The position numbers and the translations under genes are program-made. The notes below the pieces were generated by a model that saw nothing but the letters and a program-made list of their open reading frames with translations, was not told the DNA's origin and searched no databases. This document shows positions 3,262-50,882 of a DNA stretch of 64,000 nucleotides, piece after piece; positions within the stretch are counted from its first letter, which is position 1; each line of letters starts with the position of its first letter. The stretch is from Escherichia coli (GTDB lineage: Bacteria > Pseudomonadota > Gammaproteobacteria > Enterobacterales > Enterobacteriaceae), in NCBI RefSeq assembly GCF_011045215.1, contig NZ_CP049201.1, one strand, 5' to 3'.

Positions 3262-5334
<2,073 letters not shown>

Positions 5335-6918: not shown

Positions 6919-9092
<2,174 letters not shown>

Positions 9093-9183
9093 TACGTATC
9101 CTTATACCTGAAATCTTCGCAAGTATGCCTGGCCGCGAGATTATGGCACACTTGTCCGGTTAACTCTCGTCTCATACAGGTAA

Positions 9184-9203
9184 CACAAACGTGAAAATCC
9201 TTG
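9184..9203. repeat. prophage attL core (20-bp direct repeat)
   Basis: AAAATCCTTGTTGATGAAAA is repeated exactly at 46009..46028; the two copies bracket the prophage. Confidence 0.65.
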
Positions 9204-9296
9204 TTGATGAAAAAAACAAAGATTTAATTTATTGATATAAAAGGATTTGTATCAGCGTATGTCCACGCGGTGACCACATTTTCGAGAGGTAGAGTA

Positions 9297-9323
9297 AGCC
9301 CGCAACATTGCGGGCTTTGTCTT
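9297..9323 (+). terminator. plus-strand hairpin and T-tract just inside the prophage left end
   Basis: agcccgcaacattgcgggct followed by ttgtctt; in the circularised phage this would lie downstream of int across attP. Confidence 0.45.
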
Positions 9324-10113
9324 ATGGTTCGATCGCCGTTTTGAGACGTTGTGTTGCTACATCAAAATAATGATCACTGGTTTCTATACCAATAAATTTG
9401 CGTCCTGCTTTCAGTGCAGCCACACCCGTTGTCCCTGACCCCATAAAAGGATCAAGGACTGTTCCACCACTATTCGCAGTCCTGACCAGCTCTGCCATAA
9501 GTTCTTCTGGCTTTCCGGTCGGGTGCATTTTCTTTGACGGGATAACCGGGAACGTCATGCAGCCGTCGAACGGACCTGAAGGCGATTTATCTAAATGGCC
9601 TTTGCTGCCCCAGACGATGTATTCACACTGATGCCGGAAATACCCCGTATGGGGTGTTCGTGACCCCCTTCCTTTGTTCCACACAATGATTCCACGCCAT
9701 GTAAAACCGCTGGCCTGAAACGCATCGGTTAAAGCTGGTAGTTGTCGCCAGTCAGTAAATACCAGGGCATAACCGCCCGGTCTGACCGCGCGGTGTGCCT
9801 GTGCCATCCATAATTGTGTCCAGTAAGCCCACGAACGGGCGTCCATGTTTTCACCCGCGAACCCATCAAAGCGGTGAAGGTTCCCGCCGTTCAGATATTT
9901 TGCATGGCTGCCCTGGTTGGTGCGTCCGGCCTTGTGTGTCGCACCCGAACTGTAAGGCGGGTCAGTGATTAAAGCATCAATGCTTTCTGGCTCAATCAGC
10001 GGCAATATTTCCAGCGCATTCCCACGACAGAGCGTGGCATTGTCAGTCTGATAAACCTTAGTGTGTTCCGGTGTATGTGCTGGTTGGTGCTGGATTGCGA
10101 TCCCCACGGTCAT
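9322..10113 (-). CDS. DNA amino-methyltransferase (N6-adenine or N4-cytosine)
   Basis: 263 aa; DPPY motif (ITDPPYSSG) precedes the AdoMet motif (FMGSGTTG), i.e. permuted motif order; AGGAG 3 nt before the ATG, lying inside the com 3' end. Confidence 0.85.
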   Translation of the reverse strand: MTVGIAIQHQPAHTPEHTKVYQTDNATLCRGNALEILPLIEPESIDALITDPPYSSGATHKAGRTNQGSHAKYLNGGNLHRFDGFAGENMDARSWAYWTQLWMAQAHRAVRPGGYALVFTDWRQLPALTDAFQASGFTWRGIIVWNKGRGSRTPHTGYFRHQCEYIVWGSKGHLDKSPSGPFDGCMTFPVIPSKKMHPTGKPEELMAELVRTANSGGTVLDPFMGSGTTGVAALKAGRKFIGIETSDHYFDVATQRLKTAIEP

Positions 10114-10255
10114 AACTCCTCATGTGTGTGGGGTGCTCGATGGCTCTCGTTATCTGGTTAAGTGTTTTGCAGCGCGGACATTTTATTTCAATGTAGTGAA
10201 ATGAGGCGCGGGCAAGTAGTTTGTTGCAATTTTTGCATCGTACATTTTGCGTCAT
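10058..10255 (-). CDS. com: Com-like zinc-finger translational regulator
   Basis: MTQNVRCKNCNKLL...IEIKCPRCKTLN resembles Mu Com as recalled (CxxC...CxxC); 3' end overlaps the methyltransferase start by about 56 nt. Confidence 0.75.
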   Translation of the reverse strand: MTQNVRCKNCNKLLARASFHYIEIKCPRCKTLNQITRAIEHPTHMRSYDRGDRNPAPTSTYTGTH

Positions 10256-10302
10256 TTGCGGCACCTCTTGTGTGGTTACTGCTGCCGATATGATAGCAAA
10301 TC

Positions 10303-10365: not shown

Positions 10366-10401
10366 TACCAAAAAGAAAACCCGCAGTTTTTACGCTGCGG
10401 G
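10366..10401 (-). terminator. rho-independent terminator (minus strand)
   Basis: On the minus strand cccgcag-cgtaaaaa-ctgcggg followed by ttttctttttgg. Confidence 0.6.
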
Positions 10402-10490
10402 CTTGTTGTTCATGTCTGTGAGATAGGGTGCCTTATCGACCTTACCCTGACAACCGATTGACGGGGGATTGCTCCCCCGTCGCGGTTTCC

Positions 10491-10631
10491 TTACTGCTTA
10501 CACTGTAAGAACGCCGCAAACTCCGCTCCCCAGAAGCTCATCCGTATTTCGCATAGCGAACCGTGCAGCATCCAGATGATGAGGATTGCCGTCACGCAGA
10601 ACGTGATGGCCGTAAGCGATTTTTGCGACAT
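10491..10631 (-). CDS. hypothetical 46-aa hydrophobic peptide
   Basis: MSQKSLTAITFCVTAILIIWMLHG...; AAGGAG 8 nt upstream of the ATG; below the ORF-track cutoff so read directly from sequence. Confidence 0.3.
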   Translation of the reverse strand: MSQKSLTAITFCVTAILIIWMLHGSLCEIRMSFWGAEFAAFLQCKQ

Positions 10632-10821
10632 AGCACTTGCTCCTTTTCCGGAGAGGCGCTAACCTTTCACTTGTCAAGGTAATGCGGTTAGGGCCTCGGT
10701 TAAACAGAGATGTTTTCCGGGGCCTTTCCACATCTGGCCTTCGGGTATTCCCTCCGACCATCAGCCGAAAGGCACCCGCGCGTAATCTATCGCTTTTTTG
10801 TTACTCCGGCAATTCTGCCTG

Positions 10822-11082
10822 TTAATTCTGAGGTAAAGGCAAACTCATCTGATTGTTTCCCCTGTGTGAAGCTGGCAGATCATGCCATGGGATACCTTCT
10901 GATGAGTGAACGCCGGAGGCGTGTTTCGATGTAAATTTATGGAAAGCTTCCAGTGTTGAGAAGCATACGCCGCATTCCAGGTTGTTACACTGGTAATACT
11001 TTTGCCGCACGGTGTTTGAATCATTTTCCGGACGACTGGTGCGGATACGGGCAGATGCGCCACAAAGCGGACAACGGAACAT
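10822..11082 (-). CDS. ogr: Ogr/Delta-type zinc-finger late-gene activator
   Basis: MFRCPLCGASARIRTSR...YYQCNNLECGVCF resembles the P2 Ogr Cys4 finger as recalled. Confidence 0.85.
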   Translation of the reverse strand: MFRCPLCGASARIRTSRPENDSNTVRQKYYQCNNLECGVCFSTLEAFHKFTSKHASGVHSSEGIPWHDLPASHRGNNQMSLPLPQN

Positions 11083-20711: not shown

Positions 20712-22874
20712 TTAAACGCTCGCTACATTATACCAGGTGCCATTTATATACTTTTGAACGGGTCTGTAATAAACGCCCGCTATATTATCGGCAGAGTTGG
20801 AGCCTGTATCCTGAACATTAATACCAGACAATACATGACCTGACGGGCACTGGAAATTCCATGTTTGCCAGTTGTTCACTCCATAATATTGCTGTGAACC
20901 AAGTCGAACATCTTTCACATATCTGGAATCAAAATTGCCATAATTGCCGGGAATAACTTGCGCACCGCAAAGCCAGTTCCCGTTATTATCCATGTACGCC
21001 TGACCATCGGTGCCATTGGCTGTCCTTGAGTTATTAATCATGTAGATGCCAAATTGCTTATTTCCCAGACCGCCAATCATAAATTTTCGGTCGGCATGGT
21101 CCTGACGGAGCAAGGCCTGGGCGCTATCAGTGTTAACTATATTTTTCCCAAAGATAGCGTTGTTATCGCGCATCTGAATCCACATACCATTACCGCTGTT
21201 AATAGCAAAACGGTCTGAAAGTGTTTCTCCTGAAACATTAAGGCCACGCCCCATCGAAACAGCGCCAGTAGCGTTATTAATCCATAATGGCCTTAATCCG
21301 TTATAAGTCCCCATGTTGTCACCGGAGTTTGTCAACATGAAGTATGTATTTGAACCATCATTACGAATAAAGAATCCGTAACTACCATAAGCAATACGTA
21401 GGCCGTTTGCTGATTTTGATATGACTTCGCCATTTACAATGGCATTGACAAGAACATACAAAGCATCCCATTTAAGATTCATCAGGTCTTTTGTTGTGGT
21501 GCCTTGTTTGCTTCTCCATTTGAAATATTCATTGCCGTTGTCGCCTGTTTCAAACCACATGTATGAATCAGTATCGCTGTCGGCATCATTTTTAAATCCA
21601 ATCTTTGCCCAGTCAGTATTTCGAATCCAGGCAAGGATTGAGTCGTTTTCAAAAGTAAGTCCACCGGACAAGGTATCGCCTGTCTTTTGAACGGCGTTAC
21701 CAGCCTTGTTTACCGTTTCCTGTAAACCGAGGTATTCGATAACGGCGGCAACGGTCGATTTCGCAAGAATATCCCGCCCAACTTTTGTCAGGGTTGCCAA
21801 GCTGGCAACATCATTCCCCGTAAAATACGGAAACCTGTCTGCCGCAGTAGCAAGCCCGGCCAGCGCCGTCAGGGTGGCATCTTTCGGTTGCTTACCCGCA
21901 AGCGCGTTAGTCATGGTGGTCGCAAAATTCGGGTCGTTGCCCAACGCCGCAGCCAGCTCGTTCAGCGTATTCAGTGCGTCAGGCGACGAGTCCACGAGGG
22001 CAGCGATCGCAGCCATAACATAAGCCGTGCTTGCGATCTGAGTATTGTTAGTACCTTTTGGCGCAGTTGGTGTTGTTGGTGTTCCGGTCAGTGCCGGGCT
22101 GTTTAATGGGGCTTTCTTGTTCGTTTCATCCATTACCGCCTTAACCGCTTTTGGTGTCGCTGCCAGCGTTTCAGACGTGCTGTTGGTTGCACTACTAAGC
22201 TGGACAAGGCCTTTTCGCGTTGTAGTGGCGTCCTGAGCGGTATATTTTCCGTTAGCCAGGTCATACGCGGCCTTTACTGCTTTCGGCGTTGCAGCCTGCG
22301 TTTCAGAATCGTTGTTAGTGGCGCTACTGAGTTGAACAAAGCCTTTTGCGGTCAGCGAGGCATCCGGGTGACGTCGTGACTGTTCATGCTCTTTCAGTTT
22401 GTCATTCACGTAATCCACTGTGGCCATAACCATGGTGTTATCCACGGTAAGCGCCACGGTGGCAGTGCTGGATACGGTCAGAATGGTGCGAAATGTTTGT
22501 GCACGTCCGGACCCTTCGGCAACGGCTGGCTTGTAACTTTCGGCAGTATTGCCCACCGCGATCAAATCGCCGTGCTCATCAAACACACCAATTTCCCGGA
22601 TCCAGAATCCGCCCGTTTCAGGAGGAATAACCAGCTCTGCAATAATGCGGTTCTGATGTGTTGCGTCCAGGATGATGCGATTAACAGTATGTCGCCACAC
22701 CTCATGCACCAGACGGGTCTGCTTACTGTCTGGTGTGGGCAATGTACCGCCACCGTCGCCCACGGCCATATGAGTCAGGCGGACAGGCTTACCATCTGGC
22801 GCGGCTGCCTGAGCTAATTTTTTGGCACCCGTATCGGTGATAACGGTTTTAAATTTTCGTGTTGTGGTACTCAT
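20712..22874 (-). CDS. H: tail fibre protein H (constant N-terminus 22874..21742, variable C-terminus 21715..20712)
   Basis: 720 aa; N-terminus [34 protein letters not shown] resembles P2 gpH; a gix-like site lies in frame inside the gene. Confidence 0.9.
21716..21741. repeat. gix/hix-like recombination site (right end, inside H)
   Basis: TTCCTGTAAACCGAGGTATTCGATAA; inverted repeat of 18648..18673, differing only near the centre. Confidence 0.8.
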
Positions 22875-44001: not shown

Positions 44002-44289
44002 TTAAAGCCCCAGCCACAACAACCATGCATCGCGGCGTTCTTTCGGCTGATCAAAAAACGCTTTGCGCATACCTGCGTTAAATGCTGGCAGATATACCCA
44101 GTTTTCTGATGCTCGCGTCTTCACTGAACCTGGTTTCACAAAGTCAATCGTTGGTAATTTTGCAGCGTCAATCATGGTTCTGACGGTTGATTCTTTGCGA
44201 CCAATCATCTTGGCAAATAGTTGATATGGCACCGCTTCAAGTGGATATGGTGCTACCTGAATGAACCCCTCAAGCTCTGATTCGCTCAT
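44002..44289 (-). CDS. cox: Cox-like excisionase / switch regulator
   Basis: ..VPYQLFAKMIGRKESTVRTMIDAAKLPTIDFVKPGS..ENWVYLPAFNAGMRKAFFDQPKERRDAWLLWLGL resembles P2 Cox; listed ORF 44002..44325, start taken as MSESELEG. Confidence 0.8.
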   Translation of the reverse strand: MSESELEGFIQVAPYPLEAVPYQLFAKMIGRKESTVRTMIDAAKLPTIDFVKPGSVKTRASENWVYLPAFNAGMRKAFFDQPKERRDAWLLWLGL

Positions 44290-44404
44290 TGTGGTAATCT
44301 CCTTAATTCGTCCAAATGGCCCCAAATGGCTTATATAGGCTTATTTTGGCTATTTGAATGTTTTGTATTACATGTAACCCAATAGCGTGGAGTTTAGATC
44401 ACAT
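44290..44404. promoter_or_regulatory. immunity switch region with divergent promoters and operator repeats
   Basis: Direct repeats CCAAATGGC at 44312 and 44322 between divergent cox and C. Confidence 0.5.
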
Positions 44405-44725
44405 ATGATCCATAAATCAAGCCTTGGAGAAAAACTTCGCCTGATTCGAGAGGCAGAGGGATTGTCACGTAGAGAGATGGAAGAGGTGACAGGGGTATCT
44501 CAAAACAATCTCAAAAATTATGAAATATTGGGAAGAATGATACCTGGAGAAACGCTACTCCTGATTTTGAATCATCCTCGTTTTCGGAAGTATTCGGATT
44601 GGGTGATGTTTAATCAAACTAATGCTGCGACGGGGCAGATTGCTCCGCCTCTCTCTCTTGATGGCTTCTTCGATTCGGAGGGCGATCAGGTTTCAACCGA
44701 AACAAACCAAAAATCACCCCGCTAA
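44405..44725 (+). CDS. C: immunity repressor C (HTH)
   Basis: ..LRLIREAEGLSRREMEEVTGVSQNNLKNYE.. HTH and ..TGQIAP.. resemble P2 C; listed ORF 44387..44725. Confidence 0.78.
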   Translation: MIHKSSLGEKLRLIREAEGLSRREMEEVTGVSQNNLKNYEILGRMIPGETLLLILNHPRFRKYSDWVMFNQTNAATGQIAPPLSLDGFFDSEGDQVSTETNQKSPR

Positions 44726-44821: not shown

Positions 44822-45826
44822 ATGTCAATTAAGAAGCTCGAAGATGGTCGTTATTTGCTGGACATCAGGCCGAACGGACGCAAGGGAAAGCGCGTGCGTA
44901 AGGTATTTGACAAAAAATCGGTAGCGGTGGCCACTGAACGCTACATCATGGCGAACGCTGAAAAGCGGGAATATATACAGGGCTACCGTGATCGCCGAAC
45001 GCTAAATGATTTGCTTGAGTTGTGGTGGATGTATCACGGTCAACACAGGCGTAAGGCGGAAGAAGACCGAAAACAACTGCGCAACATAATCAATGAGCTT
45101 GGCGCTGATATGCAGGCTGTGGATCTTGATAAGCTGAAAATTATCGCGTGGCGTTCTCAAAAGATAGCTGATGGATTGAAACCGTCATCTGCTAACAGAT
45201 ACATGAATCGGTTATCCGGAATGTTTACCGTACTGAAGAAAATAGGCCTCTGGGATGCAGAACATCCGGTAAGGGGAATTTCTATTCTTTATGTATCTCC
45301 ACGAGAAATGGCTTTCCTGTCCCAGAAGGAAGTGGCGCTATTGCTCGATACACTGGAGGGCGATTACTGGCGTGTTGCGCTTTTGTGTTTAAGCACGGGG
45401 GCGCGCTGGAGTGAAGCTTGTAAGCTTCGTGGTGAACAGATAGTTCATAACCGTGTAACGTTTCTTGAAACCAAAAATGGCCGAAAGAGAACAGTGCCAA
45501 TTTCGCAGGCAGTTTGTGAGGCGATCAAAACCAGAGAAACAGGCGGCTTGTTTGAGGTGAAGTACCGGGAATTCTGCTTGGCGCTGAAAAGAGTTAAGCC
45601 CGATTTGCCAAAAGGCCAGGCTGCACATGTGCTGCGGCATACGTTCGCCAGCCATTTTGTGATGAACGGAGGAAACATTATTGCGCTTCAGAAGATTCTT
45701 GGCCACGCAACCATTCAGCAAACAATGGCATATGCACATTTTGCACCGGATTACCTGCAGGATGCGGTGGCCCTTAATCCGCTGAAAGGTGGCGTGAGTG
45801 TCCACGCAGTGTCCACGGGGGATTAA
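44822..45826 (+). CDS. int: tyrosine integrase (P2 Int family)
   Basis: MSIKKLEDGRYLLDIRPNGRKGKRVRK.. N-terminus and C-terminal ..HVLRHTFASHFVMNGGNIIALQKILGHATIQQTMAYAHFAPDYLQDA.. resemble P2 Int. Confidence 0.93.
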   Translation: MSIKKLEDGRYLLDIRPNGRKGKRVRKVFDKKSVAVATERYIMANAEKREYIQGYRDRRTLNDLLELWWMYHGQHRRKAEEDRKQLRNIINELGADMQAVDLDKLKIIAWRSQKIADGLKPSSANRYMNRLSGMFTVLKKIGLWDAEHPVRGISILYVSPREMAFLSQKEVALLLDTLEGDYWRVALLCLSTGARWSEACKLRGEQIVHNRVTFLETKNGRKRTVPISQAVCEAIKTRETGGLFEVKYREFCLALKRVKPDLPKGQAAHVLRHTFASHFVMNGGNIIALQKILGHATIQQTMAYAHFAPDYLQDAVALNPLKGGVSVHAVSTGD

Positions 45827-45984
45827 TTTTATATAGCCTGAAACGGCTTAAAGGGCGATACTGAATAACAATTTTTCAGTATTGCCCGTCTAAATGGTTA
45901 TGTTGTTATCTGTATGATTATGAATGTTTTTTCAGATTAAACAGCAGTTTGCAAATGGGCGTTTGTTAATAAAGGAGCCTTAGA

Positions 45985-47142
45985 TTGTCAGAGACTGAAA
46001 AAGGGTTAAAAATCCTTGTTGATGAAAATATGCCTTATGCCCGCGACTTATTTAGCCGTTTGGGTGAGGTGATCGCGGTTCCCGGGCGTCCAATCCCCGT
46101 CGCTCAACTGGCAGACGCGGATGCGCTGATGGTGCGTTCGGTCACGAAAGTGAATGAATCTTTGCTGGCAGGAAAACCCATTAAATTTGTTGGCACTGCC
46201 ACTGCGGGGACCGACCATGTCGATGAAGCATGGTTGAAGCAGGCGGGAATTGGTTTTTCCGCTGCACCTGGCTGTAATGCGATTGCGGTGGTGGAATATG
46301 TTTTCTCCTCCCTGCTGATGCTTGCCGAACGCGATGGATTTTCACTGCACGAGCGTACCGTGGGGATCGTAGGCGTTGGTAACGTTGGTCGGCGTTTACA
46401 GGCACGACTGGAAGCGTTAGGGATTAAAACCTTACTTTGCGATCCGCCTCGCGCCGACTGTGGGGATGAGGGTGATTTCCGCTCGCTGGATGAGTTAGTC
46501 CAGCGCGCGGATATTCTGACTTTCCATACGCCACTCTTCAAAGACGGGCCGTACAAAACGCTGCATCTGGCGGATGAAAAACTGATCCGTAGCCTGAAGC
46601 CCGGAGCGATTCTGATTAACGCCTGCCGTGGCGCAGTCGTCGATAATACCGCGCTGCTGACCTGCCTGAATGAAGGCCAGAAGTTAAGCGTAGTGCTGGA
46701 TGTCTGGGAAGGCGAACCGGAACTAAATGTGGAATTGCTGACAAAAGTGGATATCGGCACGCCGCATATTGCAGGCTATACCCTGGAAGGTAAAGCACGC
46801 GGTACTACGCAAGTGTTTGAAGCCTATAGCAAGTTTATTGGGCATGAACAGCACGTTGCGCTGGATACATTACTGCCCGCGCCAGAGTTTGGTCGCATTA
46901 CTCTGCATGGACCGCTCGATCAACCGACGCTGAAAAAGCTGGTGCATTTGGTGTATGATGTGCGCCGCGATGACGCACCGTTGCGTAAAGTCGCCGGGAT
47001 ACCGGGTGAGTTCGATAAACTGCGCAAAAACTATCTTGAGCGCCGTGAATGGTCATCTCTGTATGTAATTTGTGATGACGCCAGTGCGGCATCATTGCTG
47101 TGTAAACTGGGTTTTAACGCCGTTCATCATCCGGCACGTTAA
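45985..47142 (+). CDS. pdxB: erythronate-4-phosphate dehydrogenase (start supplied by prophage-derived sequence)
   Basis: 385 aa; body matches remembered PdxB from [11 protein letters not shown] onward; first 8 codons (TTG start with AGGAG upstream, MSETEKGL) lie in phage-derived DNA left of the att core. Confidence 0.88.
46009..46028. repeat. prophage attR core (20-bp direct repeat)
   Basis: AAAATCCTTGTTGATGAAAA, identical to 9184..9203; lies within the first codons of pdxB. Confidence 0.65.
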
Positions 47143-47207
47143 TCTCTTCTTCATGCTCTCTGCTGTAACATTGGCAGGGAGCTTTGCTATTTCTGGAGTA
47201 AACCACC

Positions 47208-50855: not shown

Positions 50856-50882
50856 GGGCAGGGCCACTGGCTCTGCCCTTTT
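50856..50882 (+). terminator. rho-independent terminator after accD
   Basis: gggcagggccactggctctgccc followed by TTTT. Confidence 0.7.

Follow-up and report, generated by a model that had tools for sequence, protein, structure and literature searches.

A candidate polar terminator between the attachment region and the cargo genes of a P2-like prophage in pdxB

Genes and attachment sites of the prophage

The window, by which we mean the whole stretch of 64,000 nucleotides that was analysed, is a piece of the Escherichia coli chromosome that carries, in this order, fabB, yfcJ, flk, a prophage of about 36.8 kb, and pdxB with its downstream genes. The prophage lies in pdxB and is P2-like (Peduoviridae); the gene order at both its left and its right end is the P2 layout (Table 1). 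At the left end, the RefSeq annotation of near-identical genomes and Pfam agreed on the gene calls, which comprise an N6/N4 DNA methyltransferase gene (the methylase gene), a gene for a Mu Com-like zinc-ribbon protein, hok, ogr and the tail genes, all on the minus strand. At the right end, a cox-like gene is divergent from two plus-strand genes, a helix-turn-helix immunity-repressor-like gene that is the counterpart of P2 C and the tyrosine integrase gene, int, whose transcription is directed at the att site. In the circular phage, int and the methylase gene converge.

Three features of the cargo region were seen in passing. The overlap between the Com-like gene and the start of the methylase gene measures 56 nt, which suggests Com-type translational control of a true DNA methylase, not of Mom. 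A hok/sok-like toxin–antitoxin locus is present, for which the Rfam sok match (48.4 bits) is below the gathering score of 59. The intergenic region between com and hok contains a hairpin that is terminator-like on both strands.

The prophage is bounded by two copies of a 20-bp att core that includes the 17-bp attP, ATCCTTGTTGATGAAAA, of the Citrobacter phage PhiSM. According to the passages on pdxB in Magaziner et al. 2019 (PMC6456863), PhiSM integrates 6 bp inside pdxB, and the gene is rebuilt with a TTG start and a Shine–Dalgarno (SD) sequence that the phage provides, so that lysogens remain prototrophic. The same SD and TTG are found at the right junction of the window prophage, where new N-terminal codons are fused to pdxB. 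At the left junction, the native GTG start of pdxB is left as an orphaned open reading frame (ORF) of 14 codons that runs into phage DNA.

Table 1 Features of the prophage ends and of the flanking host genes, in window coordinates.
Feature	Position	Strand	Remarks
flk (host)	8097-9092	-	Divergent from pdxB
flk-pdxB spacer	9093-9190		98 bp; presumed site of the native pdxB promoter, whose position is inferred
Orphaned native pdxB start (GTG)	9191-9235	+	14-codon ORF, VKILVDEKNKDLIY then stop; ends 60 nt upstream of the hairpin
att core, left junction	9194-9213		20 bp, AAAATCCTTGTTGATGAAAA; attL in window orientation
Putative Int arm-type repeats	9260-9277		TGTCCACGCGGTGACCAC; compare the P2 Int arm site beside its terminator
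Hairpin	9296-9317	+	Candidate terminator
T-rich tail	9318-9327	+	TGTCTTATGG
N6/N4 DNA methyltransferase gene	9322-10113	-	PF01555, E = 1.6e-33; stop codon at 9322-9324
Com-like zinc-ribbon gene	10058-10264	-	PF10122; upstream of the methylase gene and overlapping it
com-hok intergenic hairpin	10377-10404		Terminator-like on both strands
hok	10491-10631	-
hok/sok-like locus	10491-10777
ogr	10822-11082	-	Tail genes, also on the minus strand, complete the left end
cox-like gene	44002-44289	-	PF10743
Immunity-repressor-like gene (P2 C counterpart)	44387-44725	+	Upstream of int
int (tyrosine integrase)	44822-45826	+
Putative Int arm-type direct repeats	45797-45817		AGTGTCCACG, two copies within the 3' end of int; P2 has an equivalent
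Inverted repeat after int	45853-45887		13 to 16 bp, GGGCGATACTGAA...TTCAGTATTGCCC
-10 box proposed for PhiSM	45970-45975	+	TAAAGG
Phage-supplied start fused to pdxB	45972-47142	+	SD AAGGAG at 45972-45977; TTG start at 45985
att core, right junction	46009-46028		20 bp, AAAATCCTTGTTGATGAAAA
Hairpin after pdxB	47155-47182	+	Terminator-like
Further terminator-like site	50856	+

A stable hairpin with a T-rich tail on one strand

The preliminary description of this DNA had reported a plus-strand hairpin with a T-tract about 95 bp inside attL, and both parts of this statement were borne out. The hairpin (AAGCCCGCA, loop ACAT, TGCGGGCTT) has nine base pairs, six of which are G-C, and lies 83 bp from the end and 102 bp from the start of the att core, which makes 95 bp a fair figure. 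RNA folding of a 46-nt stretch around it (9285-9330, plus strand) gave -18.8 kcal/mol, compared with -9.3 ± 2.2 kcal/mol for shuffled sequences (z = -4.29), and none of 200 shuffles folded as well. The minus strand of this region folds just as stably (z = -5.6).

The two strands differ in their tails. On the plus strand, the stem is followed by a T-rich tail that reads TTTGTCTTAT when the two stem-closing T's are counted and that includes the methylase stop codon in its complementary form; only 4 nt separate this codon from the hairpin. The corresponding U-tract, UUUGUCUUAU, is interrupted and moderate (5/8 T by scan, tail score 3.40), and termination efficiency could be modest. On the minus strand, the tail ACTCTACC, which may also be read as ACUCUACCUCUCG or ACUCUACC, is without a U-tract. 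A discriminant score of the d'Aubenton-Carafa type was +13.6 on the plus strand and -9.0 on the minus strand; as its formula was combined here with modern energy parameters, the zero point of this scale is approximate. The hairpin is therefore polar by virtue of its tails, UUUGUCUUAU on the plus strand and ACUCUACC on the minus strand. Scores above 5 are reached at no more than 10 sites when both strands of the whole window are counted (128 kb of strand), and the hairpin is one that lies within the 44 nt separating the arm repeats from the methylase stop codon, which argues that it is not a chance-level occurrence. No Rfam family matched the hairpin. Thus, a GC-rich stem and a short loop, as in intrinsic terminators, are found together with a 3' U-rich tract on the plus strand and not on the minus strand.

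Position of the hairpin in the circular phage and in the lysogen

We examined the circular arrangement in the free phage Chuche (PP925824), which is 96.6% identical over the region. There, the C repressor gene, int (stop at L002:3811), the phage-encoded pdxB leader, the att core (3994-4013) and the arm repeats follow one another contiguously on the same strand, and after the arm repeats come an identical hairpin (4097-4118) and the convergent methylase stop codon at 4123. This is the position downstream of int, across attP, that the preliminary description had proposed for the excised genome, and it places the hairpin at the end of a transcription unit of its own strand, with C and int upstream. 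It is the first strong plus-strand terminator-like site past C and int in Chuche, the sole earlier one being a weak 5-pair match inside int. When attP was reconstructed by joining 45700-46008 of the window to 9194-9500, the hairpin was the only plus-strand site with a score above -15. In the window as in Chuche, it lies between the arm-type sites and the converging methylase gene. The Chuche record also annotates a hypothetical protein of 29 amino acids across the hairpin (L002 4056-4145); the window has GCG in place of its GTG start, and this ORF is probably a gene-caller artefact.

The lysogen has a different arrangement. At attR, terminator-type scoring found no comparable plus-strand site between the int stop and pdxB, and the next plus-strand terminator-like sites beyond attR are the hairpin after pdxB and the one at 50856. 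A very stable inverted repeat directly after the int stop was considered as an earlier int terminator and ruled out, since it lacks a T-tract and both of its strands score less than -15. It occupies the position of the Cox-binding region of P2. At attL, the statement that no plus-strand prophage gene precedes the hairpin is correct, since only 82 bp of phage DNA (9214-9295) lie upstream of it. The plus strand upstream is not empty, however, as it holds the host pdxB start at 9191 and its presumed promoter; the transcription unit that ends at the hairpin in the prophage would be that of the orphaned pdxB start.

The reading that we favour, and consider probable, is that the hairpin is a factor-independent terminator, polar and directed at plus-strand transcription, which marks off the attachment region from the cargo and late genes. 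RNA polymerase heading from att towards the cargo genes would be stopped there. In the circular phage, the lysogenic C–int transcript would end about 285 nt past int, after crossing attP, which would keep it from running antisense into the methylase gene, com, hok, ogr and the tail genes. Integration would part the hairpin from int and set it before the orphaned pdxB promoter, and C–int transcripts would now pass attR into the phage-rebuilt pdxB. On the minus strand, the stem probably only caps or stabilizes the 3' end of the methylase mRNA. The structure and polarity of the hairpin, its position in the free phage, its conservation and the presence of analogous hairpins in relatives are observed; from these we infer termination itself and the fates of the transcripts. 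Different int transcript ends in phage and prophage, as well as read-through into the rebuilt pdxB, are plausible because of the geometry, provided that there is no earlier stop.

Recurrence across phages and att contexts

To follow the hairpin through related phages, we used DNA patterns of the att arm and of the hairpin, because the Int protein, used as a query against viral contigs, yielded mostly prophage predictions that are cut off at the end of int and so hold no downstream sequence. IMG/VR was scanned for the att-arm 16-mer TGACCACATTTTCGAG (9271-9286 in the window), and the sequences that follow it were clustered. This arm-anchored scan recovered at least five junction types, in each of which the first feature, within about 15 nt, is a GC hairpin with a T-rich plus-strand tail. 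Four of the junction-type hairpins are unrelated in sequence to the window hairpin, and two junction variants, B and D, come out close to zero or negative on our crude discriminant. Homology of the window prophage with the pdxB-type phages P88_4B11, 500465-2 and PhiSM stops exactly at TGACCACATTTTCGAG, 9 nt before the hairpin. These phages carry other cargo, annotated as TagO-like, and have a different, symmetric hairpin, CAGATAACACAAAGCCCG-TTTTCA-CGGGCTTTGTGTTATCTG, in the same place. In one of the junction types (L136), the hairpin that corresponds to the com–hok hairpin (window 10380-10401) is directly against the att arm; this locus has apparently lost the methylase–com cargo, so that the next terminator came up to the arm.

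The hairpin also occurs at other attachment sites. P2-like prophages next to raiA (L008, L143, L145, L150-152) have the same stem and tail behind the methylase gene, and so does a third att type with different arm repeats (L144). In the raiA and L144 types, homology on the att side begins exactly at AAGCCC, and the C-terminal codons of the methylase have diverged in the raiA-type allele. The hairpin therefore co-travels with the methylase gene and not with int and attP, a linkage that, together with the immediate vicinity of the convergent methylase stop codon and the unrelated hairpins that stand at the same spot beside different cargo in other pdxB-integrating phages, the preliminary description had overlooked.

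This co-travel also fits a role in the methylase transcript, and we consider it possible, if rather doubtful, that the hairpin is the minus-strand terminator or 3'-end stabilizer of the com–methylase transcript and that the plus-strand T-tract is incidental. Such a reading would account for the start of the hairpin 4 nt past the methylase stop codon, for the joint presence of gene and hairpin in three att contexts (pdxB, raiA and L144 type) and for the equal stability of the minus-strand fold, and it agrees with the P2 record, in which the element at the equivalent position is given as the terminator of ogr and F-operon transcripts, which run on the cargo strand. What speaks against it is the strand. 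The polarity of the hairpin does not match that of the cargo: on the cargo strand, the tail ACUCUACCUCUCG lacks a U-tract and the score is the negative one. In addition, the flank on the minus-strand side is not conserved between contexts, whereas the plus-strand tail TTTGTCTTAT is invariant in all seven aligned contexts (7/7). Across the three att types, hairpin stem and tail stay constant between variable flanks, and the loop varies too. The hairpin and its tail are also retained where the methylase gene has been deleted (L007, L095) or replaced (L125). A stabilizing role on the minus strand and termination on the plus strand can coexist.

Substitutions within the stem bear on the same point. 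In two cases (variant D and L151), T stands opposite G, which gives a U.G pair in the plus-strand RNA and a C.A mismatch in the minus-strand RNA, so that only the minus-strand stem is weakened. We take this as a small hint, drawn from sequence variants, that the plus-strand RNA may be the one that matters. The hint is weakened by the state of L151 (E. coli 7_33_46A, next to raiA, 1453-1752), in which hairpin and tail are kept and the stem has the C-to-T change but the methylase gene is truncated to a pseudogene; relaxed selection may explain the wobble. A covariation test found no compensatory double changes: seven of the eight counted pairs are invariant and one changes from C-G to U.G. Stem invariance holds by construction in the set collected with the hairpin pattern, which required an exact stem; the arm- and methylase-anchored sets are free of this bias. 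The case for a terminator role thus draws on conservation and analogy, not on covariation.

In L007 (E. coli TUM1886, next to serS, 1000-2560), we also observed repeated segments of about 190-650 bp, several of which end in near-identical terminator-like hairpins, AAAAAATGCCCGCTTTCCGGCGGGCAAAAC. After these repeats comes a relic of the pdxB-type core with its arm and hairpin. The methylase gene is missing from it, and the prophage whose end it occupies is another P2-like one.

Alternatively, the hairpin could be a short palindrome that has no transcriptional role and either is kept as a linker for recombination where mosaic segments meet or arose by chance. Homology breakpoints do flank the block of hairpin and tail: on the att side they fall 9 nt upstream (after 9286) or exactly at its 5' edge, and on the cargo side a few bases past the tail. 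This reading is nevertheless improbable, because the same position holds different hairpins, four of them unrelated in sequence and all followed by a T-rich tail, beside other cargo and in P2, 186 and YpM_22, because terminator-grade sites are rare in the window, and because the loop varies freely (ACAT, GCAT, ACGT, AAAA, AAAAA and AAAAAA) while stem and tail do not. A retroregulator of the λ sib/tI type, in which int RNA reading through in the circular phage would form an RNase III site and integration would relieve it, is very improbable, although it shares the topology of an element that lies beyond attP relative to int and is parted from it by integration: folding of the read-through RNA ruled out a sib-like duplex, adding only 3 pairs across an internal loop in place of a long RNase III substrate, and P2-like phages are not known to have N-type antitermination that would make such RNA, while their C–int transcription starts at the lysogenic promoter, which works in the lysogen and so reverses the logic of λ.

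Terminator action on the plus strand, as we prefer, would not serve the host side only. In raiA-type prophages, a terminator-like hairpin of the host raiA gene already stands just upstream of the phage hairpin and would by itself be expected to stop host read-in. The persistence of the phage hairpin behind it argues that insulation from the host is not its sole role and favours one in phage transcription.

Predicted consequences for pdxB in the lysogen

The host pdxB promoter, orphaned by integration, very probably faces the hairpin directly. A promoter scan of the flk–pdxB spacer found no match to 9 of 12 consensus positions; a weak 8-of-12 match is visible. Given that the native pdxB start and its presumed promoter are retained upstream, the hairpin should cap read-in from the host and protect the antisense-oriented prophage genes. 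That pdxB-promoter transcripts should meet the hairpin is a further point that the preliminary description had passed over. The combination of orphaned start and hairpin predicts a short dead-end transcript in lysogens, which would be cut to about 170 nt if it began at the weak promoter-like match.

The rebuilt pdxB raises the complementary question. The -10 box proposed for PhiSM in the passages on pdxB of PMC6456863, which is separated by a 15-nt spacer from TTGCAA, overlaps the phage SD. Because of this overlap, mRNA from the PhiSM promoter would lack its own ribosome-binding site, which would favour pdxB expression by read-through or, failing that, from a start farther upstream. We tentatively propose that integration swaps partners: the terminator would silence the native pdxB promoter, leaving the dead-end RNA, and the rebuilt pdxB would be fed mainly by C–int read-through. 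If this conjecture is true, expression of a host gene for vitamin B6 would be tied to the lysogenic promoter of the prophage and hence to the lysis–lysogeny switch. Capping of the host pdxB promoter by a phage terminator is what we would expect in the lysogen, and the rebuilt gene may depend on prophage transcription; whether the lysogenic transcript drives it is the moderately interesting point of this locus.

Comparison with known phage terminators

For the left end of pdxB-integrating P2-like prophages, the candidate polar terminator offers a sound annotation of little weight by itself. It gains from recurrence: a terminator-like hairpin at the boundary of att and cargo returns through exchanges of cargo and att modules, in at least five recovered junction types. 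A literature search on retroregulation, sib and attP found nothing relevant, and the passages on pdxB in PMC6456863 contain no statement on a terminator. According to those passages, PhiSM has the same 17-bp att and the same SD and TTG rebuild as the window prophage; it differs in its TagO-like-annotated cargo and in the different symmetric hairpin at its att–cargo boundary.

The design is annotated in the records of 186 and P2, which the preliminary description had not considered. In 186, the "predicted terminator of lysogenic operon" (NC_001317 20930-20957) lies past the attP crossover (21023-21029) and on the strand of int. It is a hairpin with a T-tract among Int arm sites, cut off from int by integration, and so embodies the same idea as the window hairpin. 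Its stem is unrelated (AGGCCACTC-TCTC-GAGTGGCCT TTTTGTT). In addition, 186 differs in that its converging B and late transcripts are served by a terminator of their own, tB, and it integrates in a tRNA gene, so that, unlike in the window prophage, there is no read-out into a rebuilt protein gene.

In P2, a rho-independent terminator for the ogr transcript and the F operon (NC_001895 24265-24288) is placed between attP and the last converging gene, as is the window hairpin. It lies 4 nt from an Int arm-type site, and the P2 arm repeats (GTCCACnnnnTGACCAC) are similar to those of the window. In P2, either strand of the hairpin (GCCCCTC-GACT-GAGGGGC) is followed by a T-rich tail, with scores of 40 for the ogr strand and 21 for the int strand, unlike in the window hairpin, which scores as a terminator on the int strand only. 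YpM_22, a P2 relative from Yersinia, also has such a hairpin, and the tail on its int strand is better still. As the stems differ, there is no sequence homology between the window hairpin and the P2 or 186 element, and the likeness is positional and functional.

In λ, tI/sib is a terminator-containing element beyond attP that is separated from int in the prophage and so gives state-dependent int 3' ends; sib acts through RNase III cleavage of antiterminated pL transcripts. The window hairpin shares the topology of sib and not its mechanism, as it is without the extended duplex, no antitermination is known for it and int is on a lysogenic promoter. Together, these comparisons indicate that the idea is already known, and that the hairpin is an ordinary one, unusual only in having int-direction polarity while being physically linked to a cargo gene on the opposite strand.
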